A DNA stretch of 32,000 nt from Gemmata obscuriglobus (lineage in GTDB: Bacteria > Planctomycetota > Planctomycetia > Gemmatales > Gemmataceae). Both the position numbers and the translations under genes were made by a program. The notes below the pieces were generated by a model. It was not told the DNA's origin. It searched no databases and saw only the letters and a program-made list of their open reading frames with translations. Positions 1,046 through 25,208 of this stretch are shown here, piece by piece. The first letter of the stretch is position 1, and every line of letters begins with the position of its first letter. The stretch spans positions 8,520,001 to 8,552,000 of the forward strand of contig NZ_CP042911.1 of assembly GCF_008065095.1 (NCBI RefSeq). The letters run 5' to 3'.

Positions 1046-2902
1046 TTACCGCCAGTCGAACAGCGTCAATGCGAGCGCCGCGTTCGGTTCGGCTCGGTCC
1101 GAAGCGAAGACCGTTTTTGCCCCCCGGCCGTCTGCCCTCACCACACCGACCCGCCAACCGACACTCAACAATTCTCCGAACTGACGGTGGGAGTACAGGA
1201 ACCCGACGCGCGCCCCGTCGGGCGACCAGCGCACTCCGAACGGGTCGTTGGCGACATCCGCGCTACCGGGTTCGGACGCGACAACCGTGTGCGTGTTCCG
1301 CGCGAGGTCGAGAACGGCCACCCGAACCCCCGGCATGTGAACCGTTTCCTTTCCATCTTTGACCGGGTGCGTGGTTCCGTACTGGTACGCGACCCGCTTC
1401 CCGTCCGGTGACAGCGCGGCGCACACCACCGACATCAATGGTTCGGCGGCCTCCTTGGACGGACACAGCACCTCACTCGTCTTGCCGTCCGCAGAGACTT
1501 TGCACAACACCCCGCGGGTGCTGTACTCAAGGTTAAAATTAATCGAATGTTCGTCTCGGATCGTCAGGAACCACGTGCCGTCGGGAGCCCAGTCCACAAC
1601 CCGGTGATACTTTGGCACGTTCAGGGCGGTTGTTCTCCCCGCGCCCAAGTCGATCCGCACGTGCTCGTAGCCCTGGGGGCCGATCAGAGGTTGTGTGAAC
1701 CGGAATCCGACCGCCTTCTTCCCGTCCGGCGACCATGCCGTGATGTACGGCACCCCGCCCGCCGCGAACAGCGCCTCGTCCCCCTTCGCTGCCTTCACCG
1801 GAGCGACCACCGGAGGCGCCCCCGGGCTGAGCAGGTACAGCCCCTTGCGGGTATTGAGTGGGAGCCGGCCGTCCGGCGCGGCCCGCCCGCACGGGCCCAA
1901 CGGTTGCGCCAGGATCGCACTTAGCCCGCTTGTCGAAGAGAGCTTGGTTGCAGCCGTATGCCTCAACTCAACCCCTGCCCCGGCGTCCGCCTCCGTCACC
2001 CGCGCCACCTCGGTGCCGTCCGCCTTCAGCAACCGCACGTGCCCGGCGAACCCCAGCACCAGCCGCGACTCGTCCGCCGGACGCGGGGCCGGCGCGACCG
2101 CCGGGGCCGGCCCGGGCCGATCCGCGCCCAGGCCCAGCGTCACCCCGACCAGCAGCACACACGCGGCCAGCTTCCATTTCAGCGCAGATCCTTGCGACAT
2201 GATCCCCTCCGTCAGTTCCGTGACGCTTGCGGATGGGTACTCGGAAACCGGCGGCAGCGAGACCGCGTCGGGCGCCACCGCACCGAGCCCCACGGCCAGA
2301 GCCGTGGGCTCCACGCCCCGGCGCCGGAGCCGCTCGGCGAGCAACCGGCGGGCAGCCGAGAGCCGGCTGTACACGGTCCCGACCGGCACACCGAGCTGAC
2401 GCGCCACCGCCGGCTGGGACTCGCCCCGCAGGTCGCACGCGACCACCAGGGCGCGGTACCGCTCGGGCAACTCGGCCACCGCCGCGGCCACCGCCGCGCG
2501 GGTGTCGAAGTCCGGCTCCTGCTCGGGCCGCGCGCGGTCGGGCGGGGAACCCGTCAGCGACTCCCGCGCGGCCCGCCGGGCCGACCGCCGTCGGGCCGCC
2601 CGCGCGGTGTTCACCGCCACCCCGAACAGCCACCCGCCCACCGTGTCCGGCGAGTCCAGTTCACTGGCCCGCCGGGCCAGCACTAGAAACGTGGCCTGGA
2701 ACGCGTCCTCGGCGTCGTGCCGGTGACCCGTCACCCGCCGGCACACCGCCAGTACCGTCGGCCCGTGCCGCCGCACCAACTGGGCGAACGCGTCCGGGTC
2801 CCCGGTGCCCGCGAACCGGGCGACCAGTTCGCCGTCGGTCGCGTCCGCCCGGGCCGCCCGCCGCGCCCGGTTGACCGCCCCGGTCAGTACGCTCTGCGAC
2901 AT
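1046..2902 (-). CDS. ECF (sigma-70 family) sigma factor fused to a transmembrane helix and a C-terminal TolB/WD40-like beta-propeller.
   Basis: ATG at 2902 (MSQSVLTG...) with GGAGG 7 nt upstream. Region 2/4-like sequence: DAEDAFQATFLVLARR ... ELPERYRALVVACDLRGESQPAVARQLGVPVGTVYSRLSAARRLL. TM segment LKWKLAACVLLVGVTLGLGA. The C-terminus has repeated 'WSPDG / LSPDGKRVAY / WAPDG' propeller-blade motifs. The 60 codons upstream in the ORF track are Arg/Pro/Gly-rich and were discarded. Confidence 0.85.
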   Translation of the reverse strand: MSQSVLTGAVNRARRAARADATDGELVARFAGTGDPDAFAQLVRRHGPTVLAVCRRVTGHRHDAEDAFQATFLVLARRASELDSPDTVGGWLFGVAVNTARAARRRSARRAARESLTGSPPDRARPEQEPDFDTRAAVAAAVAELPERYRALVVACDLRGESQPAVARQLGVPVGTVYSRLSAARRLLAERLRRRGVEPTALAVGLGAVAPDAVSLPPVSEYPSASVTELTEGIMSQGSALKWKLAACVLLVGVTLGLGADRPGPAPAVAPAPRPADESRLVLGFAGHVRLLKADGTEVARVTEADAGAGVELRHTAATKLSSTSGLSAILAQPLGPCGRAAPDGRLPLNTRKGLYLLSPGAPPVVAPVKAAKGDEALFAAGGVPYITAWSPDGKKAVGFRFTQPLIGPQGYEHVRIDLGAGRTTALNVPKYHRVVDWAPDGTWFLTIRDEHSINFNLEYSTRGVLCKVSADGKTSEVLCPSKEAAEPLMSVVCAALSPDGKRVAYQYGTTHPVKDGKETVHMPGVRVAVLDLARNTHTVVASEPGSADVANDPFGVRWSPDGARVGFLYSHRQFGELLSVGWRVGVVRADGRGAKTVFASDRAEPNAALALTLFDWR

Positions 2903-3107
2903 TCCGTTGCCTCCGCGGGCCGGTGTCGTGCCCGCCCACCCTGATACTGGCGCCGCACCGCCCGACCCTTCGCCGAAGTGGAGGAAAAATCTCCGAACGC
3001 GGAGCCGGGGCGGACCCTGAACCGAAAGGGTACCCGGCCGGGCCGGGCGCCCGCCAGTGGAGGTGTGCGGAGGGCGACACAAGGTCGGAGCGAAAGGCGG
3101 CGGGCGG

Positions 3108-3233
3108 CTAACGGTCCGCCCCGGCGCGCTTCAGCCGCTCTTCGAGCACCGGGACGAGTTCGTCGGGCGTGTGGCTCTTGGCAACGAGCTTACTGGTCGG
3201 GGCCAGGAGCCAGTACGCGGGCACCCAGGACAC
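3108..3233 (-). pseudogene. C-terminal remnant of a thioredoxin-fold (TlpA/redoxin-like) protein, read in frame with the truncated IS3 orfB.
   Basis: The tail ...VPAYWLLAPTSKLVAKSHTPDELVPVLEERLKRAGADR* resembles the last strand and helix of TlpA-like redoxins (iPt.fLid.dGkiv.....eeL...l..ll). No N-terminal part or CxxC motif is present. The junction position is uncertain by about 15 nt. Confidence 0.4.
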
Positions 3234-4608: not shown

Positions 4609-5271
4609 ATGAGATCGGCTCTGTCCCGGCTGGCCCCGCTGGTCAGTCTCGGGTTCGTGGTCGCGCCCGGGTGCCAGTCCGCGAAGCCGCCGGAACCGCG
4701 CGGCTCGCAGCCACAAGCGGACCTTCAACCCGTACAGCTCGACTACGTCGACTCGGACGCATTTGACCTGCTGTTCGAAACGAGCCTGCGCAACGGGCCG
4801 CCGGTAGTCGTGATCCAAACCGGATACGGTAAGCCCGAGTGGGGCGCGCGGTTGAACGCGTGGATCGCGGCCTGGAACCTGGGGCGCGGGGGCGCCGCCC
4901 GGGCGCGCGGGCAGATCCCGGGCACACCGACGGTGGTCGTGGACGGCGACAGCATCCGCGAGTTCCGGCTCCTGGTGGACGGGCTGATGGGCCGGGTCGA
5001 GGAGTCGGCCCGGACCGGCACCCGGTGGTGGGAGGAGAGGCACATGCGCGAGCGGCGCGTCGCCCTGTTGCGCCCCTACAACCTCCGGTTCCACCTCGAC
5101 CCCGGGGGGCGCATCCAACTCGTCCTCTTCCACGAGGCGCACGCGGCAAAGTACGAGGGCACCGTTCGCGCGCTGTTCGACCCGGCCGGCGGTGAAGCCC
5201 TGGAGTGGGCGCCCGGTTACAGTTGCTCCCGGAGCAAACAGCGGACGACGAGCGCAACAGGGGCGGAGTGA
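4609..5271 (+). CDS. Hypothetical lipoprotein.
   Basis: ATG at 4609. Signal peptide plus lipobox: MRSALSRLAPLVSLGFVVAPGC. The composition is balanced, unlike the Arg/Pro-rich antisense ORFs. A strong terminator hairpin lies 16 nt after the stop. I did not recognise a family. Confidence 0.7.
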   Translation: MRSALSRLAPLVSLGFVVAPGCQSAKPPEPRGSQPQADLQPVQLDYVDSDAFDLLFETSLRNGPPVVVIQTGYGKPEWGARLNAWIAAWNLGRGGAARARGQIPGTPTVVVDGDSIREFRLLVDGLMGRVEESARTGTRWWEERHMRERRVALLRPYNLRFHLDPGGRIQLVLFHEAHAAKYEGTVRALFDPAGGEALEWAPGYSCSRSKQRTTSATGAE

Positions 5272-5286
5272 GCAGCAACCAAAGCC

Positions 5287-5333
5287 GAAGCGCGGCACGG
5301 AGAGCCCCCTCTCCGTGCCGCGCTTCTGTTTTA
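5287..5333. terminator. Rho-independent-type bidirectional terminator between convergent genes.
   Basis: 18-bp perfect stem gaagcgcggcacggagag / ctctccgtgccgcgcttc with a cccc loop. TGTTTT follows on the + strand. GGCTTTGGTT follows on the - strand. Confidence 0.7.
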
Positions 5334-5347
5334 AGTTCGTAGGCGGT

Positions 5348-5809
5348 TCAGCACACGCAGCAGGCGATCGGGGTGCCGCCCATCATCAGGCAGCAGGTGC
5401 AGCCGGCCTTCATGCAGCCCATGACGCAGTCGCAGCACGCCTGGATCATGGCGCAGCACGCGGCGTCGCCGCTGGTGCAGGTGACGCAGCACCCGTTGGC
5501 GGTCATCTCGCACTTGCACATCGCCATCGTCATGTTGCAGCAGCACACGGTCATGCCGTTCATCGTGCAGCACAGCGAGCACATGCCCCCGGCCATCATC
5601 GCGCACAGGTTCTGCATCATCGTGCACGCCGCCGGGTCGTCGCACTCGCACGTCATCTTCATCCCGCCGGCGCACTTCTCCACCTTCATCATGCACCGCG
5701 GCACCATCACCATGTTCGCAGTCGTGGGCATCGCGTTCGTGCCCATCGGCATCGCCGCCGAGCCCATTCCGGTCATCGCAGCGCGGTCCATCATCATTGC
5801 GGTAGTCAT
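5348..5809 (-). CDS. 153-aa Cys/Met-rich protein: a metallothionein-like domain with a Met-only N-terminal tract. No family recognised.
   Basis: ATG at 5809 with GGAG at a 6-nt spacer (cagacGGAGctaaacATG); TGA at 5348-5350. By my count it has 29 Cys and 31 Met of 153 residues, with no His, Phe, Tyr or Trp. All Cys codons are TGC, and nearly every third codon position is G/C, which fits this genome's bias. The codon-register antisense has A/T-rich third positions. The ORF fits exactly between the terminator at 5287-5333 and an AT-rich upstream region. Confidence 0.7.
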   Translation of the reverse strand: MTTAMMMDRAAMTGMGSAAMPMGTNAMPTTANMVMVPRCMMKVEKCAGGMKMTCECDDPAACTMMQNLCAMMAGGMCSLCCTMNGMTVCCCNMTMAMCKCEMTANGCCVTCTSGDAACCAMIQACCDCVMGCMKAGCTCCLMMGGTPIACCVC

Positions 5810-6023
5810 GTTTAGCTCCGTCTGAGGGACAAAGTTACGGTCGGCTTCCCTCCGTCCCGACCGCTCGATTTCAAGCAAATTACACCACTTCAGCTTCGAA
5901 ACACGCAAAAGCGCATTACCGCAGTTGCTTTTCTCCGGCGCGAGGTTAGAATTCGAGTAGATACACTACTAAGTTAACTATTCTAGTGATCAATCGCTGA
6001 CGAATTCCGACTGAGGACCACTC
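5810..6023. promoter_or_regulatory. Divergent, relatively AT-rich intergenic region upstream of the Cys/Met-rich gene and a small + strand ORF.
   Basis: The stretch 5945-6010 (ttagaattcgagtagatacactactaagttaactattctagtgatcaatcgctgacgaattccgactgag) contains two GAATTC(C)GA repeats 53 bp apart, a central GTTAAC, and a CACTA-N15-TAGTG dyad. No known operator was recognised. Confidence 0.3.
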
Positions 6024-6245
6024 ATGTCCGCGCACCGCTTCCTCGAACACCTCCCGAATGCCGCACCCGTGTCGCCCGTTATGTTGGCGGCCCCTTCGTG
6101 TGCGTTCGTGCCGTGTCCGGTGTTCGCGGCGATGCCGGTGGGTCAGCAGACTCACGTTCAAGCGATTTATCAACTCGCCGCGGAACGCACCCGCGAGCAA
6201 CTCCGCCGCCGTCGCCCCTGGCCGCCTCTGTTCTCTGCAAACTGA
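6024..6245 (+). CDS. Small hypothetical protein (73 aa).
   Basis: ATG at 6024 preceded by GAGGA at a 6-nt spacer. GC3 is moderately high. A hairpin follows at 6263-6305. No recognisable domain, so it could be spurious. Confidence 0.3.
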   Translation: MSAHRFLEHLPNAAPVSPVMLAAPSCAFVPCPVFAAMPVGQQTHVQAIYQLAAERTREQLRRRRPWPPLFSAN

Positions 6246-6262
6246 TTGCCGGCGACACACGC

Positions 6263-6305
6263 CACCCGACCGATCCGGCGAATCATTTGCTGGATCGGTC
6301 GGGTG
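6263..6305 (+). terminator. 14-bp perfect hairpin downstream of the small ORF; candidate terminator.
   Basis: cacccgaccgatcc / ggatcggtcgggtg with a 15-nt loop, followed by ATTTCGTT. Confidence 0.4.
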
Positions 6306-6384: not shown

Positions 6385-7350
6385 TCACAACGGTGATAGG
6401 TGCGGTGAACGAAACGGCGGTGCCTCTTCCCCGCCGGCTTCGGAACACAGGAACCCGTAAGCGGCGAACACGAGCCCGACGTGGTGGTGCCAGCCGTGCC
6501 AAGTCCGGCCTTCGAAGTGATCCAACCCCAACGCGTTCCGCAGCCAATCGAACCGTAACACCGCGCCAGCGACGGCACCGGCGGACTCGCTCCGGACCGA
6601 CCCGCCGAGCGCCTGAAGCCCTTCCTGGAAACCAGGGTCTTCGAGGTAACCGGGCTCTCCGGTGACCGCCGGCACTTCCCCTTCGCCGCGCAACTCGTCG
6701 AGCAGCCGCAGCGCGATCTCGGCTTTGGACGCGGGTTGCCGGGCGTCCACCGGGACCGCCGTGCCCGCACCGTGTTCGCGGAGCCACGCCGCCGGCAGGT
6801 AGAGCCGCGCCGTGAGCGGGAAGTACCCCGCCGGACCGACCTGCGTTACGAACACCCCCACCTGGCAGTTGATCTTTTTGCCCAGCGCTCGGGCGAACTG
6901 CGGTTGCACCCCGACCGAGTGCCGCCCCTTCTTGGCGAACGCGCCGTCGTGAATCACCCACACCGCGCCCGAATCGGCTCGCACCGCGAGCGTGCGCCGG
7001 ACCGCGGCGAACAGCCGCGATGCGTCCCACGGGCTGTGGCTGACAAAGTGCTGGAGCGCTTGTGCCAAGTTCGCTTCGGTCGTGATGACCCGCCCGGCCG
7101 CGGCGGCGATCGACTCGACGTTCTTGCGATCGGACGGTTCGAGCAACCCGCGGAGGTACACGCGGAAGCGCAGGAACTGGTCGGCGCGCTGGAACGTCAC
7201 GCGAAAGCGGGCCGCGTACTCCTCGAACCGCGTCTGCCACCCGTCGCGAAGGGTGAGGCCGGACGCCGGGTCGTTCGGGCGTTCGCGTTCCTCGTCCTGG
7301 TGGGCCAAAATCGTGTCTCCACGGGCGGTGGGCAACCAGAGAGGAAGCAA
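6385..7350 (-). CDS. IS701-family (DDE) transposase-like protein, shortened and probably degenerate.
   Basis: Family motifs present: RVYLRGLLEPSDRKNVESIA; WVIHDGAFAKKGRHSVGVQPQFARALGKKINCQVGV; GLDHFEGRTWHGWHHHVGLVFAAYGFL. It is only 321 aa, and the TTG start in the ORF track is uncertain. The spacing between the 'GEPGY' (expected aDagYG) and 'LDHFEGR' blocks is about 50 aa, shorter than I expect for this family. Confidence 0.65.
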   Translation of the reverse strand: MLPLWLPTARGDTILAHQDEERERPNDPASGLTLRDGWQTRFEEYAARFRVTFQRADQFLRFRVYLRGLLEPSDRKNVESIAAAAGRVITTEANLAQALQHFVSHSPWDASRLFAAVRRTLAVRADSGAVWVIHDGAFAKKGRHSVGVQPQFARALGKKINCQVGVFVTQVGPAGYFPLTARLYLPAAWLREHGAGTAVPVDARQPASKAEIALRLLDELRGEGEVPAVTGEPGYLEDPGFQEGLQALGGSVRSESAGAVAGAVLRFDWLRNALGLDHFEGRTWHGWHHHVGLVFAAYGFLCSEAGGEEAPPFRSPHLSPL

Positions 7351-8625: not shown

Positions 8626-9039
8626 ATGAGCACAGACATACGACTCGCTCGCGCGCTCGCCCTGGCACTGGTTCCGGCTCTCGCCGCGGGCTGCACGCGG
8701 GGCGAGGGCGGGCACCCGACGGCGGGGCAGGTGGTCTGGTCCGGCGGCCAACTCGGCGGGCACTTCGTCGAGGTGACGCGGGTCGACGACCTGAGCGTGC
8801 GCGGGTTCGGAACGATCGGCCCGGACGGGCGCTTCGCGCTGGAGCGGTTGGTGGACGGCAAGACGGTTCCGGGCCTCCCGCCGGGCGAGTACCAGGCGCG
8901 GCTGATCCTGACCGACGAGGGGGACGGGCAAGCGAAGAAGCCGAACGTGCCTGCCCGCTACCTGGACCAGAAGACCGCCGGCTGGCGGGTCACGGTGCCC
9001 GCGCCCGGGGACGTGACGCTGACCGTGGCCCCGAAATGA
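8626..9039 (+). CDS. Small lipoprotein, carboxypeptidase-regulatory-like; a typical DUF1559 partner.
   Basis: ATG at 8626 after GAGGGGA. Lipobox: ALALVPALAAGC. It lies 16 nt after the DUF1559 stop. The all-beta-looking sequence has GQVVWSGG...GRFALE...GEYQARL. Confidence 0.7.
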   Translation: MSTDIRLARALALALVPALAAGCTRGEGGHPTAGQVVWSGGQLGGHFVEVTRVDDLSVRGFGTIGPDGRFALERLVDGKTVPGLPPGEYQARLILTDEGDGQAKKPNVPARYLDQKTAGWRVTVPAPGDVTLTVAPK

Positions 9040-9196
9040 CGAGCCACGCGGTTCGCCCCGCCCCGGATCGGGTGGCGAGGGGAGAGGCGCTGCCCGGCCC
9101 GCCGGTTTCGGACGGGCGAGGGGTCGTGGGAGAGCGACCCTACGCGGGCGGGTGCGAACCGCGTCAGTCACCATCGAACACCGAGGAAACAATACC

Positions 9197-11788
9197 GTGA
9201 ACCGGTTCCGACTGATCCCACTCGCGATGCTGGTGCTGGCGTTTTCGGCCACCGCCCGCGCCGCGGACCCGGACGCCGCGAAGGTGGAGTTCTTCGAGAA
9301 GAAGGTGCGCCCGATCCTGGCGGGGCACTGTTACGGGTGCCACTCGGCCGACACCAAGCCGGCCGGCGGGCTGCGGGTGGACGACCGCAACGGGCTGCTG
9401 TCCGGCGGCAACACCGGCCCGTCCGTCGTGCCCGGCGCGCCCGAGAAGAGCCTGCTCATCACCCGCGTCACCACCAAGAACGAGAAGCGGCGCATGCCCA
9501 GCGAGGGCGAAGCGCTGTCCGAGGAGCAGGTGGGCGTGCTGCGCCAGTGGATCAAGGACGGCGCCGCGTGGCCGGCGGTCCGGGTGCCGGCCTCGCTGGG
9601 CCAGGCGAAACCCGAGTACGAGAAGCTCAAGAAGGAGCACTGGGCGTTCCGGCCGCTCGCCGAGCCCACAGCACCCGCAGTCAAAGACGCGGCGTGGGCG
9701 CGGGGCGCCGTGGACCGGTTCATCCTCGCCGCGCTCGAGGCGAAGGGGCTGAAGCCGGTCGGCGACGCGGACAAGGTGGCGCTGCTCCGGCGCGTGACGT
9801 TCGACCTCACCGGGCTGCCGCCCACGCCCGCCGAGATCGACGCGTTCCTGAAAGACGAATCGCCCACGGCGTTCGAGAAGGTGGTGGACCGCCTTCTGGC
9901 GTCGCCCCAGTTCGGCGAGCGCTGGGGGCGGCACTGGCTGGACGTGGCCCGGTACGGCGAGAGCACCGGCCCGAGCCGCAACATCCCGTACCCGCACGCG
10001 TGGCGGTATCGCGACTACGTGATAGACGCGGTGAACGCCGACGTGCCGTTCGACCGGTTCGTCCGCGAGCAGGTCGCCGGCGACCTGTTGCCCGCAAAGG
10101 ACGACGCCGAGCGGAACCGGCTGCTCACCGCGACCGGGTTCCTGGCGCTGGGCGTGAAGGACGTGAACCAGCGGTTCAAGGTCCGGTTCGTGATGGACAA
10201 CGTGGACGAGCAGGTGGACGCGGTCACCCGCTCGGTGCTCGGGCTGACGGTGAGCTGTGCGCGGTGCCACGACCACAAGTTCGACCCGGTGCCGATGGTC
10301 GATTACTACGCGCTGGCCGGCATCTTCACCAGCACCGAGAACGCGTCCGGGCTGCGGAACCAGATGGGCGGCGCCGGGCTGGCGTACTACGTCCCGGCGA
10401 ACCTCGTGCGGCTGACCGGTGATCTGCCGCCGGCGGACCCCGAGAAGGTCGCCAAACTGACCGCCGAAGTGGCAGAAGCGAAGAAGGCCTGGGACGCGAT
10501 CCGCGGCACCCCCGAGGGCCTCAAACCGGCCCCGAACGGCCAGCCGACGCAGCGCCCGTACCGGCTCAAGTACGAAGCGCTCCAGGGCGAGTTGAACGCG
10601 CTCACCGACCCGGCGGCACGCGGGCTGGCGGCGCACGGCGCGCGGGACGCGACAACAGTTGCCGACACCGAGCTGCGCGTCCGCGGCGAGGCGGAAAAGC
10701 TCGGGCCGGTGGTGCCGCGCGGGTTCCTGACCGCGTTCGAGGTGCCCGGGGCGGCGAAGGTGAACCCGAAGCAGAGCGGGCGCCTGGAACTGGCCCAGTG
10801 GCTCACCAGTTCGGGTAACCCGCTGGCCCCGCGGGTGGCGGTGAACCGCGTGTGGCAGCACCTGTTCGGCACCGGGCTCGTGAACACCGTTGACAACTTC
10901 GGGGTGACCGGGGCGGCCCCGTCGCACCCCGAACTGCTCGACCACCTCGCCCGGCAGTTCCTCGCGGACGGGTGGAGTACGAAGAAGCTGGTGCGGCACC
11001 TGGTCCTGAGCCGGACGTACCGGCTCAGCTCGGATGCGACCGCGGCGCACCGGGCCGCGGACCCCGACAACCGGCTGCTGTGGCGCCACGCGCCGCGGCG
11101 GCTGAGCGCCGAGGAGCTGCGGGACGCGGCGCTGGCCGCGGCCGGCGCCCTGGACCCGAAGCGCCCGGACGGGTCGCCCGCGACCGCGCTGCGGATGGTC
11201 GAAATGCGGGACAACGGCCCCGAGTCCAACGCGATCCACGAGAGGGCCGACGCCGCGACCTACCGGAGCGTCTACCTGCCGCTGTTGCGTGGCGTAACGC
11301 CGCACGCGCTGGAGGCGTTCGACCCGGTGGACCAGACACTGGTCAGCGGCACCCGTGACACCACCACCGTGCCCGCCCAGGCGCTGTTCCTGCTCAACTC
11401 CCCCTTCGTGCGCAAGCAGGCCCTGGTGTTCGCCGAGCGGCTCCTCAAGGACCGCGACGCGGCCGACGCCGACCGCGTTCGCGCGGCGTACCGGTTGAGC
11501 GTCGGCCGCGAGCCGACCGACGCGGAGGTCGACCGGGCGCGGGCGTTCGTGGGGGCTTACGAGTCCGAGTACCGCAAGAACCCGCCGAAGGTGGTCAAGG
11601 CGCCGGCTCCGAAGAAGGGACCCGCACCGAAGAAGGTCGATGACCCGGCCCAGGACCCGGACCAGATCGACCAGACCAGCGAGACCGTCACCGAGGACGT
11701 GGTTCAGGCGAAGGACCCGCGCACCGCCGCCTGGATGGCGTTCACACAAGCCCTCCTCGCCAGCGCCGAGTTCCGCTACGTGAAGTGA
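9197..11788 (+). CDS. PSCyt1/PSCyt2(DUF1549)/PSD1(DUF1553) protein (planctomycete cytochrome-c-domain family).
   Basis: Probable GTG start at 9197 (GAGGAAA 7 nt upstream), giving a signal peptide VNRFRLIPLAMLVLAFSATARA. Motifs: CYGCHS; RRVTFDLTGLPPTPAEIDAFLKDESPTAFEKVVDRLLASPQFGERWGRHWLDVARY; CARCHDHKFDPV. Confidence 0.9.
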   Translation: MNRFRLIPLAMLVLAFSATARAADPDAAKVEFFEKKVRPILAGHCYGCHSADTKPAGGLRVDDRNGLLSGGNTGPSVVPGAPEKSLLITRVTTKNEKRRMPSEGEALSEEQVGVLRQWIKDGAAWPAVRVPASLGQAKPEYEKLKKEHWAFRPLAEPTAPAVKDAAWARGAVDRFILAALEAKGLKPVGDADKVALLRRVTFDLTGLPPTPAEIDAFLKDESPTAFEKVVDRLLASPQFGERWGRHWLDVARYGESTGPSRNIPYPHAWRYRDYVIDAVNADVPFDRFVREQVAGDLLPAKDDAERNRLLTATGFLALGVKDVNQRFKVRFVMDNVDEQVDAVTRSVLGLTVSCARCHDHKFDPVPMVDYYALAGIFTSTENASGLRNQMGGAGLAYYVPANLVRLTGDLPPADPEKVAKLTAEVAEAKKAWDAIRGTPEGLKPAPNGQPTQRPYRLKYEALQGELNALTDPAARGLAAHGARDATTVADTELRVRGEAEKLGPVVPRGFLTAFEVPGAAKVNPKQSGRLELAQWLTSSGNPLAPRVAVNRVWQHLFGTGLVNTVDNFGVTGAAPSHPELLDHLARQFLADGWSTKKLVRHLVLSRTYRLSSDATAAHRAADPDNRLLWRHAPRRLSAEELRDAALAAAGALDPKRPDGSPATALRMVEMRDNGPESNAIHERADAATYRSVYLPLLRGVTPHALEAFDPVDQTLVSGTRDTTTVPAQALFLLNSPFVRKQALVFAERLLKDRDAADADRVRAAYRLSVGREPTDAEVDRARAFVGAYESEYRKNPPKVVKAPAPKKGPAPKKVDDPAQDPDQIDQTSETVTEDVVQAKDPRTAAWMAFTQALLASAEFRYVK

Positions 11789-11833
11789 CCGGCTCGTCGG
11801 CCCTGGATCGACACCGGGGCCGACGCCGAAAAC

Positions 11834-11863
11834 CACCAACACCAAACACCAAACACCAAACAC
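11834..11863 (+). repeat. CACCAA(A) heptamer microsatellite in the PSD1-DUF1501 intercistronic spacer.
   Basis: caccaa caccaaa caccaaa caccaaa cac lies immediately upstream of the ATG at 11868. Confidence 0.85.
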
Positions 11864-11867
11864 TCCC

Positions 11868-13232
11868 ATGCACCAGTTCCCGTCCGTGTCACGCCGCAGC
11901 GTGTTGAAATCCGCCAGCGCCGGGTTCGGCTACCTCGCGCTGGCGGGGCTGTTGGGCGAGCAGGCTCGCGCGGCCGAGAAGGCCGCCCCCAAACCTCTTG
12001 GGCCGAAGGCACCGCACTTCCCGGCCAAGGCGAAGCGGCTCATCTTCGTCCACATGAACGGGGCGATGTCGCACCACGACACGTTCGACTACAAGCCGCA
12101 ACTGGTGAAGGACAACGGCAAGCCGGGGCCGGGCGGCGGGGTGCTCACCGCGTCTAAGTTCAAGTGGCAGCAGTACGGGGGCACGGGGTCGTGGTTCTCC
12201 GAACTGCTCCCGAACCTGGCCAAGCACGCGGACAGCATGACATGGCTCCGCGGGCTCCACACCGACACCCCGGCGCACCCGCAGGCGGTGGTGCAGTTGC
12301 ACACCGGCAGCGCGAACGCCGCGCTCACCCGGCCCAGCCTGGGCGCGTGGCTCCTGTACGGGCTGGGCACCGAGAACCAGGACCTGCCCGGGTACGTGAC
12401 CGTCAACCCGCCGCCCAACTTCGGCGGCGCGGTGAACTACGGCAGCGCGTTCCTGCCGGCCCACTTCCAGGGCACCCGCCTCACCGACCGGGGGCACCTG
12501 CCGAACCTCCGCGCCACCGCCGCGAGCGACTTGCAGCGCAAGCAACTGGACCTGATCCAGGGGATGAACCGGGACCTCGCCGCGGCCCCCGGGGCGCCGG
12601 ACGCGGTGGACGGGGTGATCGAGTCGTTCGAGCTGGCGTTCCAGATGCAGGGGAAGGTGCCGGAGCTGCTCGACATCTCGAAGGAGCCCAAGAAGGTGCT
12701 TGAGGCGTATGGGGTGACGGACGGGCCGGCGGGGGCGTTCGCGCGGCAGTGCGTGATGGCCCGGCGGTTGAGCGAGGCGGGCGTGCGGTTCGTGGAGATC
12801 TGCCAGCCCGGGTGGGACCACCACAACAACCTGCACAAGGGGCTCATCGACCGGTGCGGGTCGGTGGACCGGCCGACCGCGGCGCTGCTCGCGGACCTCG
12901 GCGCGCGCGGGCTGCTGGACGACACGCTGGTGCTGTTCGGGAGCGAGTTCGGACGGCTCCCCACGTCCCAAGGGCAGGACGGGCGGGACCACAACATCAC
13001 CGGGTACCCGATGTTCCTCGTCGGCGCGGGGGTGAAGCCGGGCGTCACCTACGGCGCCACCGACGAGTACGGGATCAAGGCGGTGGAAGGGCGGATGCAC
13101 ACCACCGACCTGCACGCCACGCTGCTCGCGCTCATGGGGCTGGACCACGAGAAGTTGACCTACAAGTACGCCGGCCGCGACTTCCGGCTCACCGACGTGA
13201 AGGGCAACGTGGTCAAAGAGATCTTCGCCTGA
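11868..13232 (+). CDS. DUF1501 (sulfatase-fold) protein with a Tat-type signal.
   Basis: N-terminus: MHQFPSVSRRSVLKSASAGFGYLALAG. Also WDHHN and GSEFGRLP...GRDHN motifs. The pairing downstream of a DUF1553 gene is canonical. Confidence 0.9.
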   Translation: MHQFPSVSRRSVLKSASAGFGYLALAGLLGEQARAAEKAAPKPLGPKAPHFPAKAKRLIFVHMNGAMSHHDTFDYKPQLVKDNGKPGPGGGVLTASKFKWQQYGGTGSWFSELLPNLAKHADSMTWLRGLHTDTPAHPQAVVQLHTGSANAALTRPSLGAWLLYGLGTENQDLPGYVTVNPPPNFGGAVNYGSAFLPAHFQGTRLTDRGHLPNLRATAASDLQRKQLDLIQGMNRDLAAAPGAPDAVDGVIESFELAFQMQGKVPELLDISKEPKKVLEAYGVTDGPAGAFARQCVMARRLSEAGVRFVEICQPGWDHHNNLHKGLIDRCGSVDRPTAALLADLGARGLLDDTLVLFGSEFGRLPTSQGQDGRDHNITGYPMFLVGAGVKPGVTYGATDEYGIKAVEGRMHTTDLHATLLALMGLDHEKLTYKYAGRDFRLTDVKGNVVKEIFA

Positions 13233-20252: not shown

Positions 20253-21716
20253 TTAGATGATCTGTTTGATCGGCTCGGCCCCTTCAACGCCGACCAGCTT
20301 CTGGTCGAGCCCGCCGTAGAAGTACGTGAGCTTGTTCGGGTCCAGCCCCATCTGGTGCAGCACGGTGGCGTGCAGGTTCTTGACGTGGAACCGGTCGTCC
20401 ACCGCGAAGTTGCCCAACTCGTCCGTCGTCCCCACGCTCACGCCGCCCTTGATCCCGCCGCCGGCCAGCCACGAGGTGAACCCGTAGGCGTTGTGGTCGC
20501 GGCCGGTGCCCTGGGCGTACTCCGCGGTCGGTTGGCGGCCGAACTCGCCGCTCCAGATCACGACGGTGCTGTCCAGCAGCCCGCGGCGCTTCAGGTCGGT
20601 GAGCAGCCCGGCGATCGGCTTGTCCGTCGCGCCGGCGTGCAGCGAGTGGTTCTTCACCAGGTCGCCGTGCGCGTCCCAGTTGTGGTCGTTGTGGTTGCCG
20701 CCGGAGTAGATCTGGATGAACCGCACGCCGCGCTCCACCAGCCGCCGGGCCAGCAGGCACTTCCGGCCGAAGTCTTCCGTCTTCTTGTCGTCCATCCCGT
20801 ACAGCTTCTTCGTCTCCTCGGTCTCCTTGGCGAAGTCGACGGCCTCGGGGGCGTGCTCCTGCATCTTGTACGCCAGCTCGTAGCTCGCGATGCGGGCCAC
20901 CAGCTCGCTGTTGTCCTGGCGCGCCGCGAGGTGCTCCTGGTTCTTCTCCTTGAGCCGGTCGAGCAGGTCCCGCTGCTGCGCGCGGGTCATCCCCTCGGCC
21001 ACGGCGAGGTCGTGGATCGGGGTCTTGTCGGCGCGGATCTGCACGCCCTGGTACGCGGCCGGCATGTACCCGCTGGACCAGTTCTTCGGGCCGTTGATCG
21101 GGCCGCCGCTGTGGTCGAGCATTACCACGAAGCCGGGCAGGTTCTCGTTCACGCTCCCCAGGCCGTAGGTGACCCAGCTCCCGAGGCACGGGCTGCCGGA
21201 CAGGAGCCGCCCGCTGTTCATCATGAGCAGGCCGGACCCGTGGATCGGCGACTCGGCGTACATGGAGTGGATGAACGCGATGTCGTCCACGCACTGCCCC
21301 ACGTTGGGGAACAGGTCGCTGACCCGTTTGCCGCACTTGCCGTAGTTCTTGAACGCGTACTTCGGCCCGACGACGCGGCCGGTGTTCTTGTGCCCGCCGC
21401 GGCCGAACGTCTTCACCGGGATGGTTTTCCCGTCGAGCCGGGCCAGTTCGGGCTTCTCGTCGAACGTGTCGACCTGGCTCGGCCCGCCGTACATGAACAG
21501 GAAGATGACGGCCTTCGCCTTGGCCGGGTACATCGGGGCCTTGGGCGCCATCGGGTTCGTGAACGTGGTGCCCGCGGACTTCGGCGCCTCGTTCGCCAGC
21601 AGCCTGTCGTTGTGGAACAGCCCGGTAAGGCCGAGCGCGCCGAACCCGGCCCCGGTCTCCCACAGGAGCTCGCGGCGCGTCCGGCGGCAGAACTGGTCGG
21701 CGTCGTTATTGTGCAT
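20253..21716 (-). CDS. DUF1501 (sulfatase-fold) protein with a Tat-type signal.
   Basis: ATG at 21716 with GAGG upstream. N-terminus: MHNNDADQFCRRTRRELLWETGAGFGALGL. Motifs: NHNDHNWDAHG, SGEFGRQP...GRDHN. The longer 651-aa ORF in the track runs through the vapC locus in another frame and was rejected. Confidence 0.9.
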   Translation of the reverse strand: MHNNDADQFCRRTRRELLWETGAGFGALGLTGLFHNDRLLANEAPKSAGTTFTNPMAPKAPMYPAKAKAVIFLFMYGGPSQVDTFDEKPELARLDGKTIPVKTFGRGGHKNTGRVVGPKYAFKNYGKCGKRVSDLFPNVGQCVDDIAFIHSMYAESPIHGSGLLMMNSGRLLSGSPCLGSWVTYGLGSVNENLPGFVVMLDHSGGPINGPKNWSSGYMPAAYQGVQIRADKTPIHDLAVAEGMTRAQQRDLLDRLKEKNQEHLAARQDNSELVARIASYELAYKMQEHAPEAVDFAKETEETKKLYGMDDKKTEDFGRKCLLARRLVERGVRFIQIYSGGNHNDHNWDAHGDLVKNHSLHAGATDKPIAGLLTDLKRRGLLDSTVVIWSGEFGRQPTAEYAQGTGRDHNAYGFTSWLAGGGIKGGVSVGTTDELGNFAVDDRFHVKNLHATVLHQMGLDPNKLTYFYGGLDQKLVGVEGAEPIKQII

Positions 21717-21736
21717 GGCGTGAGCCTCGGTTTCGG

Positions 21737-22156
21737 TTAGTTCCACACGTCGAAGGTGAGCCCGGGCACCTGAGCGTAATCGCGGGCATTTCGGGTCGCG
21801 AGCGTGGCCCCGTGGACAACACAGATCGCGGCGATACGGAGGTCGTTCGTTCCAACGCGGATCTTGGCCGCTCGCCACTGACGCACCAGCGCATCGGCCG
21901 CGGCGGTGTACGGCAGAAGCGCGAACGGGACTATAACCGTCAGGCTTTCCTGCAAGCGTCCGAATGCGAATTCTAAACTCATTCGCCCTTTGCCGGCTTC
22001 GGCCTGTCGCACGGCGTTCAACCAGCCACGAACGACTTCCCCCGCAACGACGATCGGGACAAACCGTTCGGCGGGAGCAACGGCACCGAGCCGTCGCTCG
22101 TACACCGCGTTGCCGGCGAAGAGTTCCGTCAGCACGTCGGTGTCGAGTGCCGTCAT
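21737..22156 (-). CDS. vapC: PIN-domain toxin (VapC family).
   Basis: MTALDTDVLTELF... (acidic residue near the N-terminus), ...VAGEVVRGW..., ...GTNDLRIAAICVVHGATLATRNARDY... is the typical PIN layout. 139 aa. A 4-nt ATGA overlap joins it to the upstream small gene. Confidence 0.85.
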   Translation of the reverse strand: MTALDTDVLTELFAGNAVYERRLGAVAPAERFVPIVVAGEVVRGWLNAVRQAEAGKGRMSLEFAFGRLQESLTVIVPFALLPYTAAADALVRQWRAAKIRVGTNDLRIAAICVVHGATLATRNARDYAQVPGLTFDVWN

Positions 22157-22431
22157 TCCGGAAACTCCGCAGCCTTCTGGGCGTCGCGCTCCCGGTAGAT
22201 CTCGTCACACAACTCGCGCCAAGCTTGAGCCTTATCGGGCGACTCGTCAGGAGCGGGCGGCGGGACCGTCACCAGCACCACCTCGCCCGCAGTCATACGG
22301 CTTTGGAGCTGGGCTGTGACGGCCGACACCGCCTGCTCCTTGGTCGCGCCCTCGGACGCAACTCGTGGGTCCCCGAGCACGCTCGCCGTGAACGTGCCGT
22401 TGGACTGCGTCACAAAAATCGGGAACGTCAT
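22153..22431 (-). CDS. Putative cognate antitoxin (VapB position); fold not recognised with certainty.
   Basis: ATG at 22431 with AGGAGGG at a 6-nt spacer. 92 aa: MTFPIFVTQSNGTFTASVLGDPRVASEGATKEQAVSAVTAQLQSRM... Its stop overlaps the vapC start (ATGA at 22153-22156). The assignment rests on position and size only. Confidence 0.6.
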   Translation of the reverse strand: MTFPIFVTQSNGTFTASVLGDPRVASEGATKEQAVSAVTAQLQSRMTAGEVVLVTVPPPAPDESPDKAQAWRELCDEIYRERDAQKAAEFPE

Positions 22432-22467
22432 GCGCGGCCCTCCTGTTCGCATCGTAACAGGTGCGGC

Positions 22468-25017
22468 TCAGTCCAGGTAAACGAACTCGTTGGCGTTCAG
22501 GCACAGCAAGGCGTACCGCGTGAGCGCCTGGGCGTCACTCAGCTTGTGCTTCTCCTTCAACTGGGCGATGAACGCGGCGTCCGCCTTCACCTCGTCCGCC
22601 GACGGCACCCGCCCGGTGGTGAGGCGCACCGCGCGGGCGATCTGGGCCGCCACGTTGTCGGGCGCCTCCTTCTGGAGCCGCTTCGCGAACGCCTCGGCCT
22701 GCTCGTTAGCGAACTCGCCGTTGAGCAGCCCGAGCGACTGCGTCGGCACCGTGGTCACGTACCGCACCGGGCAGCTCGAGTCCGGGTCCGGCTGGTCGAA
22801 CCCGACCAGGATCGGCACCCGCAGCGACCGCTTGACGTGCGCGTACACGCTGCGCCGGTTCCCTTCGTCCGGCGGCGACGTGGGCCACCCCTGGCCCGGC
22901 ACGGACTGGCCCGCCAGCACCTCCTTCGGGATCTTCGGGTAGGTGCTCGGGCCGCCCATCTTCAGGTTCAGCGCGCCGCTCACCGCCAGGATCGAGTCCC
23001 GCACCTCCTCGCCCGACAGGCGCCGCATGTTGAACCGCCACAGGAGGTTGTTCGCGGGGTCCGCCTTCAGGTTGCCGGCGTCGGCCCGGGCCGACAGTTG
23101 GTACACGCTCGACATCATGATGAGCTTGTGGAGCCGCTTCAGCTTCCACTCGCCGCCCGTCAGCTCCTGAGCGAGCCAGTCGAGCAGCTCGGGGTGCGTG
23201 GGGGCCGAGCCGAGCTTGCCGAAGTCGTTGGCGCTGTCCACGATCCCGCGGCCGAAGTGGTACTGCCACACCCGGTTCACCATCACCCGGGCGGTGAGCG
23301 GGTTGTCCTTCGACGCGATCCAGTTCGCCAGCACGGTGCGCCGGCCGCTCGACTTCTGGCCCGGCTTGGGCGGCGCGATCTCGGGCTCCGGCAGCCCCAG
23401 CACCTCCGGGAACCCGGGCTTCACTTCCTTGCCCTTCGCCTGCGGCGAGCCGCGCACCAGAATGTGCGTGGTGGGCGGGGTCCGTTCGCAGTTGTTGACC
23501 GACAGCGCGAGCTGCTGGCCCGCCGGGCGGGTCCGCTTTTCCAGCTCCGCGCGCTCGCCCTTGAGCGCCGCGTACCCGTCCTTCACCGCCCCCTTCAGGG
23601 CCGGGACCACCTTCCGCTCGATCACCTGCGGCCGGTCGGGTCCCTCGGAGGCGCGCTGGTCCTCGGCGGGCAGCGTCTTGATGACGTTCTCCTCGATCTC
23701 CTCCATCAGCTTCTTGATCTCGGCCGCCCGGGCCATGCGCTTCTTGAGGTCCTCCTCGTACTTCGCGCGCTGCTCCGGCGGGGTGATGTCCGAAAGGCTG
23801 TTCGCGGACCGCACGTCCCGGTTCTCGGAGTACGGCTTGATGTCCCGGAAGAACGCGACCAGCTTGTAGTAGTCGGCGGCCGGGATCGGGTCCGCCTTGT
23901 GGTCGTGGCACCGGGCGCAGTTGAAGGTGGTGCCCAGGAACCCCTGGCCCACCGTGGACACGATGTCGTCGTACCCGTCGAACACGGCCAGCAGCGGGTC
24001 GGCCGGCTCGTCGTCCCAGATGCCGAGCCGGTAGAACCCGGTCGCGATCACCGCGTCGGGGTTGTAGCCCGGCACCTCGTCCCCCGCGAGCTGCTCCTTC
24101 ACGAACTGGTCGTACGGCTTGTCGTCGTTGAAACTCTTGATGACGTAGTCGCGGTACCGCCACGCGAACGGCTTCGGGCCGTCGCGCTCGTACCCGTTGG
24201 TCTCCGCGAACCGCACCACGTCGAGCCAGTGCCGGCCCCACTTCTCGCCGTAGTGCGGGGAGGCCAGCAGCCGGTCGATCAGCTTCTCGTAGGCGTCGGG
24301 CGACCGGTCCGCGACGAACGCGTCCACCTCTTCCGGGGACGGCGGCAGCCCGGTGAGGTCGTACGCGGCGCGGCGGATTAGCGCCGCCTTCTCCGCGGGC
24401 GCGACCGGCTTCAGCCCCTTCGCTTCGAGCTTCGCCAGCACGAACGCGTCGATCGGCGTCTTCACCCACCCCGCGTCCTTCACCGCCGGCACGGCCGGGC
24501 GCGTGACGGGCTGGTAGGCCCAGTACTTCTTGGCCTCTTCGGTGACGACGCCCTTGTGCGCGGCCTTCTCGGCGCCGCCGAGCCGGTCCGCCGGGACCGG
24601 CAGCCCGTCCTTCACCCACTTCTCGATGGTCGCGATGTCCTTGTCGGGCATCTTGCCCTTCGGGGGCATCTTGGCCGCGTCGTCCTTGTAGTGGATCGTC
24701 TTGAGCAGCAGGCTGTCCGCGGGCGCTTTGAGATCGACCGCCGGGCCGCTCTCCCCGCCGGCGAGCACGCCCTTGCGGGTGGCGAGGTTGAACTCGCCCT
24801 TCAGCTTCGCCGGGTCGGCGCCGTGGCACTTGAGGCAGTGCTGCGTGAGCACCGGCAGCACCTCCTTCTCGTAGAAGCTCACCTGCGCGGCGGTGAACTT
24901 CGGCGCGGGCTCGGCCGCCTTGTCGTCGGCCGCGCGGGAGCGGAACCCGCCGGCGAACGCGACCAGCGCCGCGGCGAAGCCGGTGAGCGCGAGCGTGCGT
25001 GAGATGCGTGAGGTCAT
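22468..25017 (-). CDS. PSCyt1/PSCyt2(DUF1549)/PSD1(DUF1553) protein.
   Basis: ATG at 25017 with signal peptide MTSRISRTLALTGFAAALVAFAGG. Motifs: CLKCHG; RRAAYDLTGLPPSPEEVDAFVADRSPDAYEKLIDRLLASPHYGEKWGRHWLDVVRF; CARCHDHKADPI. Confidence 0.9.
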   Translation of the reverse strand: MTSRISRTLALTGFAAALVAFAGGFRSRAADDKAAEPAPKFTAAQVSFYEKEVLPVLTQHCLKCHGADPAKLKGEFNLATRKGVLAGGESGPAVDLKAPADSLLLKTIHYKDDAAKMPPKGKMPDKDIATIEKWVKDGLPVPADRLGGAEKAAHKGVVTEEAKKYWAYQPVTRPAVPAVKDAGWVKTPIDAFVLAKLEAKGLKPVAPAEKAALIRRAAYDLTGLPPSPEEVDAFVADRSPDAYEKLIDRLLASPHYGEKWGRHWLDVVRFAETNGYERDGPKPFAWRYRDYVIKSFNDDKPYDQFVKEQLAGDEVPGYNPDAVIATGFYRLGIWDDEPADPLLAVFDGYDDIVSTVGQGFLGTTFNCARCHDHKADPIPAADYYKLVAFFRDIKPYSENRDVRSANSLSDITPPEQRAKYEEDLKKRMARAAEIKKLMEEIEENVIKTLPAEDQRASEGPDRPQVIERKVVPALKGAVKDGYAALKGERAELEKRTRPAGQQLALSVNNCERTPPTTHILVRGSPQAKGKEVKPGFPEVLGLPEPEIAPPKPGQKSSGRRTVLANWIASKDNPLTARVMVNRVWQYHFGRGIVDSANDFGKLGSAPTHPELLDWLAQELTGGEWKLKRLHKLIMMSSVYQLSARADAGNLKADPANNLLWRFNMRRLSGEEVRDSILAVSGALNLKMGGPSTYPKIPKEVLAGQSVPGQGWPTSPPDEGNRRSVYAHVKRSLRVPILVGFDQPDPDSSCPVRYVTTVPTQSLGLLNGEFANEQAEAFAKRLQKEAPDNVAAQIARAVRLTTGRVPSADEVKADAAFIAQLKEKHKLSDAQALTRYALLCLNANEFVYLD

Positions 25018-25208
25018 GGCGTGGGTCCGGCAGGCGGGGGGCGATTGCGTAATCGGTGGGTCGGTCGCGCCGGGGAGGGGCACTCTCTCGGTTATTCTCG
25101 GGGGCGCCGCCCGGGCCGCACAGGGCGACTCGGGCGGCACGCTCTTGGGTTTTCAGTGGCGGCACCGCGGGCCGCCCGGGGCGCGGGCGGCACACGGTCC
25201 CAATCGGC

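Follow-up and report, generated by a model that had tools for sequence, protein, structure and literature searches.

The nearest described counterparts of the protein reported here are proteins in which cysteine (Cys) or methionine (Met) has accumulated far beyond ordinary levels. Among bacterial metallothioneins, SmtA has about 56 amino acids and a zinc-finger-like fold that uses His, and smtA is divergent from its regulator gene, smtB. The known Met motifs that bind Cu(I), such as those of CopA/PcoA/PcoC, CusF, CueO and Ctr1, act in the periplasm or outside the cell. Plants have sulfur-rich seed storage proteins (Brazil-nut 2S albumin, the 10- and 18-kDa delta-zeins and sunflower SFA8), which are compact, secretory and rich in Met or Cys as a sulfur reserve; they contain about 20–30% sulfur amino acids, and it is their composition, not a catalytic site, that is under selection. 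The copper storage proteins (Csps) have about 13–19 Cys and little Met, and the genes for the cytosolic Csp3 are not known to be embedded in a metal operon. Csp1 and Csp3 are folded, Cys-lined stores, the cytosolic ones among them, with Met and His at the copper entry end (reviewed in PMC7558416), and the same review gives the mass of the metallothionein MymT as 4.9 kDa. Here we describe a gene of Gemmata obscuriglobus at 5348–5809 on the minus strand of a 32,000-nucleotide stretch of DNA (assembly GCF_008065095.1, contig NZ_CP042911.1, positions 8,520,001 to 8,552,000 of the forward strand), which we call the window. Its sulfur-rich product is a member of none of these families, and represents a new family and a new predicted fold among Cys/Met-loaded sequestering proteins. 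We tentatively favour the view, to which we give somewhat less than an even chance, that it is a cytoplasmic reserve or buffer of Cys and Met.

The gene and its immediate signals are as follows:

5348–5809, minus strand: coding sequence of the sulfur-rich protein (153 amino acids, 29 Cys, 31 Met, 15.8 kDa, isoelectric point (pI) 5.1)
5816–5819, minus strand: ribosome-binding site GGAG, as read from the sequence, six nucleotides from the ATG
5287–5326, both strands: terminator-like hairpin with an 18-bp stem (13 G–C pairs), between the sulfur-rich gene and the convergent gene 4609–5271 (plus strand)

The open reading frame (ORF) runs from ATG at 5809–5807 to TGA at 5350–5348. Its limits, its 29 Cys and 31 Met, its complete lack of His, Phe, Tyr and Trp and the spacing of its GGAG had been reported in a first-pass annotation made by a model from the sequence alone, and all were reproduced when we counted again; GGAG-like sites also stand at the equivalent position before the start in most homologous loci. 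Cys and Met together account for 39.2% of residues (19% Cys, about 20% Met), and sulfur for 12.2% of the mass. The Cys residues form six CC pairs, one CCC, five CxC motifs (CEC, CKC, CDC, CTC and CVC) and several CxxC motifs, and Met residues form MxM at positions 5, 20 and 33 and MxxM at position 12. Because Cys averages 1.0% and Met 1.1% over 13 other genes from the window, which makes the binomial probability of at least 60 Cys/Met in 153 residues about 1e-58, this composition is not due to chance. The scarcity of His extends to the homologues (0.15% of residues over 81 of them). The hairpin, 3' of the stop codon, had been described as a dedicated terminator; a terminator score is indeed obtained, for either strand, and the hairpin is shared with the convergent gene.

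The source genome has 68% G+C and contains long ORFs in several frames. As had been noted at first pass, Cys is always encoded by TGC (29 of 29 codons) and third codon positions are nearly all G or C; G+C content at codon positions 1, 2 and 3 (GC1, GC2 and GC3) is 0.40, 0.58 and 0.96, the odd GC1<GC2 reflecting the many ATG and TGC codons. A plus-strand ORF at 5373–5825 also has G/C-rich third positions and, in addition, the more usual GC1>GC2 pattern, so that an evolutionary test of the strand was needed. Across 83 homologous loci, the Cys/Met frame was open from the assigned start to the stop codon in every case, with a coding length of 132–188 codons in 81 of them, whereas the antisense frame was broken by at least one stop in 54. 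Per-site differences at sense codon positions 1, 2 and 3 of the core were 0.23, 0.18 and 0.31. By these evolutionary measures the minus-strand gene is real and under purifying selection, in agreement with the strand first proposed, and we rejected the plus-strand gene on account of the stop codons in homologues. Two antisense shadow ORFs lie over the gene, at 5373–5825 and 5192–5815 (both plus strand). The former has many Ile, His and Gln residues; it has the same G/C third positions and could, with its GC1>GC2, be miscalled as a gene. The latter, in which Ala and His abound, reads in the exact reverse-complement frame.

Structure prediction, which the first-pass annotation had suggested as a check, divided the protein into a disordered tail and a confidently predicted core:

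5705–5809, minus strand: N-terminal tail, residues 1–35, rich in Met, Gly, Pro and Thr, with MxM and MxxM, predicted to be disordered
5522–5698, minus strand: core repeat 1, residues 38–96, predicted beta-hairpin, helix, beta-hairpin (AlphaFold2, predicted local distance difference test (pLDDT) >90)
5351–5521, minus strand: core repeat 2, residues 97–153, predicted beta-hairpin, helix, beta-hairpin (AlphaFold2 and hhalign)

The AlphaFold2 model was built on a 72-sequence alignment (mean pLDDT 82, predicted template modelling score (pTM) 0.71); residues 1–30 have pLDDT <50 and the remainder >90. A division into a Met-rich tail and a Cys-rich body had already been recognized, and it stands, with the correction that residues 1–38 hold 11 Met, not 12. 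In alignments the tail opens with a conserved MMM(D/E)R. The predicted topology of the core is (beta-beta-alpha-beta-beta) twice over, giving eight strands and two helices. Its halves (residues 42–92 and 99–152) are 40% identical and match each other with an hhalign probability of 96.6% (E = 5e-10), from which it follows that the domain of about 118 amino acids is an internal duplication of a unit of about 55. The conserved residues other than Cys and Met stand at positions that look structural: Gly or Asn-Gly between paired strands (G49, N84-G85, G106 and G136), CDD and TSGD ahead of the two helices, and a Gln at the equivalent place in each helix (Q66 and Q123). The glycine-containing breaks that had been read as dividers between segments are, in the model, turns of beta-hairpins and not linkers. 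Foldseek found no significant match in the PDB (best template modelling (TM) score 0.29) and none among viral models, and the core is accordingly predicted to be an alpha/beta domain of novel fold, without a PDB analogue.

Comparison with the described systems can now be made point by point. Like Csp1 and Csp3 (PDB 5FJE and 5NQO), the sulfur-rich protein has a small, predefined fold in which Cys takes the place of core residues; like Csp3 it has no signal peptide, and its gene, too, lies outside a metal operon. It differs in that a Csp is a Cys-lined four-helix bundle and the protein described here is predicted to be an eight-stranded sheet with two helices, in its content of about 20% Met, in the lack of any sequence, profile or Foldseek match that would tie the family to the Csps (DUF326), and in having sulfur-metabolism genes as neighbours, as set out below. 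With bacterial metallothioneins (SmtA/BmtA, PDB 1JJD; MymT) it shares high Cys, the CC/CxC/CxxC motifs and the absence of aromatic residues, which are the broad operational marks of that class, and a small divergent gene stands upstream here as well. Its mass of 15.8 kDa exceeds the limit of about 10 kDa that goes with those marks, and its 153 residues include 20% Met and no His. The core, moreover, is predicted to fold without metal, as a regular alpha/beta domain shared with relatives of ordinary composition. Searches for Metallothio_Pro gave no match for the window protein at E up to 10 or for 24 family members at E up to 1, and the family profile found no metallothionein among PDB chains. 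The initial description of the protein as an oversized metallothionein therefore captures a likeness in composition only, given the predicted rigid, duplicated body and the ordinary composition of distant relatives.

The plant storage proteins offer an analogy of another kind. They are not homologous and belong to other organisms with another cell biology, and their content of sulfur amino acids is exceeded by the 39% found here; the feature in common is bulk composition, seen in this family in the 39% sulfur residues, in homologues ranging from 34 Cys and 1 Met to 10 Cys and 48 Met, and in Cys/Met swaps within alignment columns. The resemblance to the Met motifs of CopA/PcoA/PcoC, CusF, CueO and Ctr1 is confined to the tail, a flexible Gly/Pro-rich segment with MxM, MxxM and MGM, 11 Met in its first 38 residues and predicted disorder, and it is a resemblance of pattern only. 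The sulfur-rich protein differs from those proteins in lacking an export signal, and its tail follows the composition of the domain.

How far that composition varies became clear from counts of Cys and Met in the 120-amino-acid domain of representatives at 50% identity:

Ordinary type (P0161, P0192, P0207, P0180): Cys 6–9, Met 0–5
Cys-extreme type (P0197, P0200, P0123): Cys 32–34, Met 1–4
Met-extreme type (P0218): Cys 10, Met 48
Met-extreme type (P0245): Cys 5, Met 36
Mixed type (the window protein and close relatives): Cys about 29, Met about 20

In distant relatives of ordinary composition, the positions of Cys and Met in the window protein are occupied by Leu, Val, Ile, Phe, Ala or Ser. These relatives keep about six of the Cys and the scaffold motifs VPRC, E.., GG, QNL, NG, TS.D and N.TP.C, and on sequence comparison the ancestral fold is of ordinary composition. 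On this one scaffold the ratio of Cys to Met ranges from 34:1 to 10:48. A Met-rich tail is found only together with a Met-rich domain, and the Met-extreme relatives have tails with MGMPGMNMG. Even among close relatives the two residues swap within single columns (column 81 is C in 68% and M in 22%; column 132 is M in 55% and C in 42%), an exchange that takes three base changes. Taken together, the range of composition, the tail that tracks the domain and the column swaps indicate that selection seems to act on the overall content of sulfur or soft ligands, laid over a pre-existing fold, and not on one defined metal site. A metagenome scan for the genomic context of Met-extreme relatives returned almost only the mixed type.

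The gene had been considered an orphan, which it is not. A search of 5.8 billion proteins gave at least 749 homologous clusters (90% identity) at E ≤0.01, and relatives are present in 169 species-level genomes out of a set of 185,579 species with a single genome each. The family is nevertheless compact, since an exhaustive HMMER scan of 1.84 billion representatives yielded only 165 clusters at 50% identity. The best 120 of the 749 clusters are 58–81% identical and nearly all 147–181 amino acids long, with three shorter fragments; all 120 are labelled hypothetical and none has a Pfam domain. The carriers are nearly all labelled Gemmataceae, Isosphaeraceae or unclassified Planctomycetota, with one Pirellulales metagenome-assembled genome (MAG). 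The closest relative is in Gemmata algarum JC673 (98%), and others are in Frigoriglobus, Limnoglobus, Tuwongella, Zavarzinella, Urbifossiella, Fimbriiglobus, Singulisphaera and many Gemmataceae and Isosphaeraceae MAGs; within several of the genomes there are two or three paralogues. Searches of Pfam, NCBIfam and PDB sequences found no match for the window protein (in Pfam, at E up to 10), for 24 family members or for the family profile, which bears out the earlier remark that the architecture fits no characterized family, and we found no description of the family in the literature on planctomycete Cys- or Met-rich proteins, metallothioneins and sulfur storage proteins. The Cys-rich YTV proteins of planctomycetes, identified in cell-wall preparations, are a different thing. 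Three large, multi-stretch matches (P0201, P0233 and P0266) are immunoglobulin-like/OmpA repeat proteins and were set aside as probable compositional false positives. This planctomycete-type gene also appears in MAGs labelled Sphingobium, Alcaligenaceae and Gammaproteobacteria (loci L028, L041 and L061), on contigs that are probably mis-binned.

The genes that flank homologues point to sulfur metabolism. We clustered the flanking ORFs of the 83 loci and named the recurrent ones by curated models (loci are numbered with L):

Cystathionine gamma-synthase/lyase (NF005871, 552 bits): L004, L060, L077, L078 and L081; 28–78 bp away in L060 and L081
Cystathionine beta-synthase (TIGR01137): L004, L026, L060 and L077
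Sulfate permease CysT/CysW (TIGR02140): L014, L023, L032, L041 and L059
Sulfate-binding protein Sbp (NF008022): L014, L032 and L059
Aliphatic sulfonate binding protein (SsuA family): L001 and L016
EgtB (TIGR03440): L023 and L067
Cysteine dioxygenase (CDO_I, PF05995, 66 bits): five loci
FAD/NAD(P)-binding partner (sub-threshold matches only): six loci
Sulfatases (sub-threshold matches only): nine loci

Scores for the cystathionine gamma-synthase/lyase, cystathionine beta-synthase, CysW, Sbp, SsuA and EgtB were above the curated cut-offs. A search with seed proteins, covering 84 loci of at least 8 kb, found Rrf2-family regulators in 24, cysteine dioxygenase in 9, cystathionine beta-synthase in 8, CysT/W in 7, and cystathionine gamma-synthase/lyase and Sbp in 5 each; 23 of the 84 loci had a core sulfur gene, and 38 had a core sulfur gene or Rrf2. 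The sulfur genes differ by lineage. Two loci that were fetched independently, with precomputed Pfam calls, gave the same picture: one (L085) has a whole cysPTWA operon 63 bp downstream, and in the other (L084) the gene stands between CDO_I and NAD_binding_9. Near the Frigoriglobus gene are a sulfatase, an Rrf2 regulator, a gamma-glutamyl transpeptidase and an ssu-like transporter/monooxygenase cluster. If, as we assume, the sulfate ATP-binding cassette (ABC) transporter operon usually occurs once per genome, then CysT/W within 8 kb in at least seven loci of genomes of about 9 Mb is, by our estimate and with the kinship of the loci uncorrected, far above expectation.

The Rrf2 genes lie about 0.2–1 kb from the sulfur-rich gene (for example, in L021, L026, L029, L036, L040, L047, L060, L081, L124, L153 and L161). 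Their products pass the superfamily model only, and their best sub-threshold match is mostly to CymR, a repressor of cysteine metabolism. Two types can be told apart by a C-x(7-10)-C-x5-C motif, present in the first, and a lack of Cys in the second. No pump, chaperone or sensor for copper, zinc or cadmium recurred near the gene in a crude, regex-type scan of about 100 loci, and the window itself holds no metal gene, as the first-pass annotation had observed.

One further neighbour is a secreted protein of about 220 amino acids, encoded on the same strand 60–1,450 bp downstream in L033, L035, L048, L049, L056, L064, L065, L068, L070, L073 and L079. It forms an apparent operon with the sulfur-rich gene in a single clade, whose members have Lys-rich C-terminal extensions, and it carries the motif GPFHP.NVTG....HC.(V/I).E.GL.P, with no credible Pfam or NCBIfam match.

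A reserve or buffer of sulfur amino acids is the reading that best joins the novel fold, the extreme and partly interchangeable Cys and Met, and the sulfur and Rrf2 neighbours, and the frequency of sulfur-uptake and Cys/Met genes nearby makes it more likely than a classical metallothionein. A cytoplasmic location is consistent with an N-terminus free of signal-peptide features, and a published proteome table (PMC8567305 supplement) gives the Tuwongella orthologue (GMBLW1_16720, VTS00950.1) the SignalP class 'OTHER', meaning no signal peptide. We envisage that synthesis of the protein would go with an ample supply of sulfur or cysteine and might be controlled by a CymR-like Rrf2 regulator acting on conserved blocks upstream of the gene. 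Each 15.8-kDa chain would then lock away 29 Cys and 31 Met, with a stable fold limiting the reactivity of the thiols. When sulfur is short, the protein would be degraded, the disordered tail being a plausible entry point for a protease; the Cys and Met released could be interconverted by the transsulfuration enzymes encoded nearby, and cysteine dioxygenase could dispose of any surplus. We infer all these steps of regulation and turnover. Of the three roles listed at first pass (a metal sink, a sulfur-storage protein and the precursor of a modified peptide), genomic context thus favours sulfur storage. Such a protein-based sulfur store would join bacterial reserves such as cyanophycin, polyphosphate and polyhydroxybutyrate (PHB), and would explain how large-genome planctomycetes of peat, soil and fresh water buffer both a fluctuating sulfur supply and toxic free cysteine. 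The linkage to sulfur metabolism gives the family directly testable predictions.

Several observations weigh against a reserve. We know of no characterized bacterial protein with a role in storing sulfur amino acids, and no sulfur gene lies near the sulfur-rich gene in the window. Planctomycetes possess sulfatases and some of the other neighbouring families in great numbers, and the loci share ancestry; for both reasons the enrichment falls short of a formal statistic. The Tuwongella orthologue is not among the proteins detected in the proteome (PMC8567305 supplement); its tryptic peptides are long and full of Cys and Met, however, so this says little. Within the Gemmataceae/Isosphaeraceae clade, conservation reaches at least 95% at 16–17 Cys and about 10 Met positions, which is tighter than expected under a model of pure bulk composition and would be appropriate for fixed ligands. 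Finally, the protein shows classic signs of thiolate/thioether metal binding: CC, CxC and CxxC motifs, no His or aromatic residues, and a tail rich in MxM.

These last points bear most directly on a store for soft metals like Csp3 or a metallothionein, a possibility that we regard as real but doubtful. Here, Cys thiolates and Met thioethers, both within the alpha/beta domain and on its surface, would bind many Cu(I) ions (or Ag, Cd, Zn or As(III)), and the Met-rich tail would capture Cu(I) and hand it over. Besides the 19% Cys with its motifs and the conserved Cys positions, this account can draw on the precedent of the Csps and on the MGMPGMNMG tails of Met-extreme relatives, which resemble known Cu(I) Met motifs. 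It has to contend with loci in which sulfur-metabolism genes appear instead of recurring metal genes, with the ordinary composition of the ancestral fold and with the lack of homology to any metallothionein or Csp family; relatives that run from almost Met-free to almost Cys-free are, in addition, hard to square with one defined cluster geometry. If it were correct, cytosolic thiolate clusters would have a third structural solution in this family, in addition to metallothioneins and Csp bundles. Whether for sulfur or for metal, one fold here tolerates the replacement of about 40–50% of its residues by Cys, Met or both, a natural experiment in protein design, and a family unannotated in some 170 species-level genomes lends itself well to a Pfam entry and to structural studies.

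Other accounts of the Cys and Met fare less well. The protein might be a sacrificial redox buffer, scavenging H2O2, HOCl and peroxynitrite and recycled by methionine sulfoxide reductases and thioredoxin. Cys and Met are, by established chemistry, both readily oxidized and enzymatically repairable, Cys-rich and Met-rich variants could serve equally, and the frequent Rrf2 neighbours belong to a family that includes redox and nitric oxide sensors. We nonetheless judge this improbable: no genes for msrA/msrB, thioredoxin or peroxiredoxin recur next to the gene, the conserved downstream secreted protein of one clade matches no family, buried core positions are as enriched in sulfur as exposed ones, which is not what a scavenger needs, and the sulfur-uptake and transsulfuration neighbours would be left unexplained. 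Still less probable is a carrier whose Cys hold iron–sulfur clusters, or persulfide or polysulfide, for cofactor assembly under IscR-like Rrf2 control. Some of the neighbouring Rrf2 proteins do have a three-Cys motif of the cluster-binding kind, about six Cys persist even in relatives of ordinary composition, and archaea provide a case of protein-based iron–sulfur storage (IssA, PMC5524996). Yet the protein has no ferredoxin-type CxxCxxC...CP motifs, no isc, suf or nif genes were seen nearby, Met-extreme relatives could not work in this way, and the Rrf2 neighbours score best, below threshold, on CymR rather than IscR. Almost no credence can be given to the precursor of a ribosomally synthesized and post-translationally modified peptide (RiPP), or to the absence of any gene on the minus strand. 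Cys-rich precursors exist for some modified peptides, but no enzyme of the radical S-adenosylmethionine (radical-SAM), YcaO or lanthionine-synthetase type is among the recurrent neighbour families and the entire 118-amino-acid body is conserved and confidently folded in prediction, which makes the modified-peptide role listed at first pass unlikely. The second option appeals to the overlapping plus-strand ORF with its normal-looking GC1>GC2, and is opposed by the antisense stops and by the sense frame that is never broken.

Upstream of the sulfur-rich gene, the window contains a divergent arrangement that recurs in other genomes:

5924–5992, minus strand: three conserved intergenic blocks, at 5960–5992 (ACTAA..AT.GT.AACTT.AT.GT), 5945–5953 (AATTCTAAC) and 5924–5932 (AAAAGCAAC)
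6024–6245, plus strand: divergent 73-amino-acid ORF (M..HRF.E.L ... AFVPCP ... QQ..VQEIYRLAAERTREQL ... FSxN)
6263–6305, plus strand: terminator-like hairpin of 20 pairs, just 3' of the 73-amino-acid ORF
6385–7350, minus strand: IS701-family (DDE_5) transposase-like gene, 321 amino acids, shortened (PF13546, 120 bits; NF033540, 214 bits)

The divergent intergenic region between the sulfur-rich gene and the 73-amino-acid ORF is 214 bp long. The conserved blocks emerged from an alignment of 22 upstream regions and are likely to be a shared promoter/operator; the region has no match to the sigma-70 consensus and no credible Rfam match. With tblastn at a permissive cut-off, 35 of the 83 loci have a homologue of the 73-amino-acid ORF within the 600 bp upstream, encoded on the opposite strand (about 30 with E <0.01); loci that lack the IS701-like gene are among them. 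The ORF keeps its start, the AFVPCP motif, a helix (EIYRLAAERTREQL) and the FSxN end. It has seven database homologues and no Pfam or NCBIfam match, and AlphaFold2 predicts a single confident helix at residues 39–62. GC3 of the ORF reaches only 0.72, and Cys is encoded by TGT, against TGC elsewhere in the genome; the Tuwongella version has a pI of about 12. The product could be a regulator or a partner protein. The tail-coding part of the sulfur-rich gene (5742–5758) and the 73-amino-acid ORF (6126–6142) share a 17-nucleotide inverted repeat with 94% complementarity. Both copies encode AAMP(M/V)G in their own sense strand, so the two mRNAs would not pair, and the repeat may be due to chance or to old gene conversion.

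The IS701-like gene had been taken, with its surroundings, for insertion-sequence (IS) debris among which the sulfur-rich gene arrived as a stand-alone cassette. Its NF033540 score of 214 bits exceeds the cut-off of 150, with the best stretch covering model positions 1–205 of 363. A homologue with 40–65% identity lies on the same strand, at nearly constant spacing upstream, in 24 of the 83 loci (among them Frigoriglobus, Tuwongella, Limnoglobus, Zavarzinella and Urbifossiella), and the arrangement was seen again in independently fetched loci. An orthologous position at such divergence across genera indicates that the gene is immobile, and the same position and orientation in about 25 loci of at least six genera show the arrangement to be old and inherited, not a recent insertion. 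Codon-position differences for the gene are 0.33, 0.31 and 0.52, and the region of the expected second catalytic Asp is not conserved. No inverted repeats flank it, and no terminal ones enclose it together with the 73-amino-acid ORF and the sulfur-rich gene. It is probably an immobilized relic or a domesticated transposase, as judged from these comparisons.

Joined into one account, these elements would make the sulfur-rich protein the first dedicated bacterial storage protein for sulfur amino acids. Its previously unseen, duplicated fold would have had Cys and Met substituted throughout at its hydrophobic positions; the protein would be integrated with cysteine homeostasis, through sulfate uptake, transsulfuration, cysteine dioxygenase and Rrf2 control, and its gene carried with a domesticated IS701 transposase and a small partner. 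We consider that full account conceivable and, as a whole, rather unlikely.

The remaining genes of the window belong to typical planctomycete families, none of them related to metal or sulfur: DUF1559, two pairs of PSCyt/DUF1553 and DUF1501 genes, an extracytoplasmic function (ECF) sigma fusion, a sortilin/PDZ protein, ThuA/DUF7133 and ROK. The ECF fusion (1046–3130, minus strand) has 694 amino acids and joins ECF-type sigma-70 regions 2 and 4 to a C-terminal part that is weakly WD40-like (PD40); other genomes show no synteny between it and the sulfur-rich gene. The pair of a PSCyt1/PSCyt2/PSD1 (DUF1549/DUF1553) gene and a DUF1501 gene occurs at 9023–13232 (plus strand) and at 20253–25152 (minus strand), and similar pairs lie near the sulfur-rich gene in 15–17 loci; because these families are very abundant in planctomycetes, their recurrence is probably background synteny.

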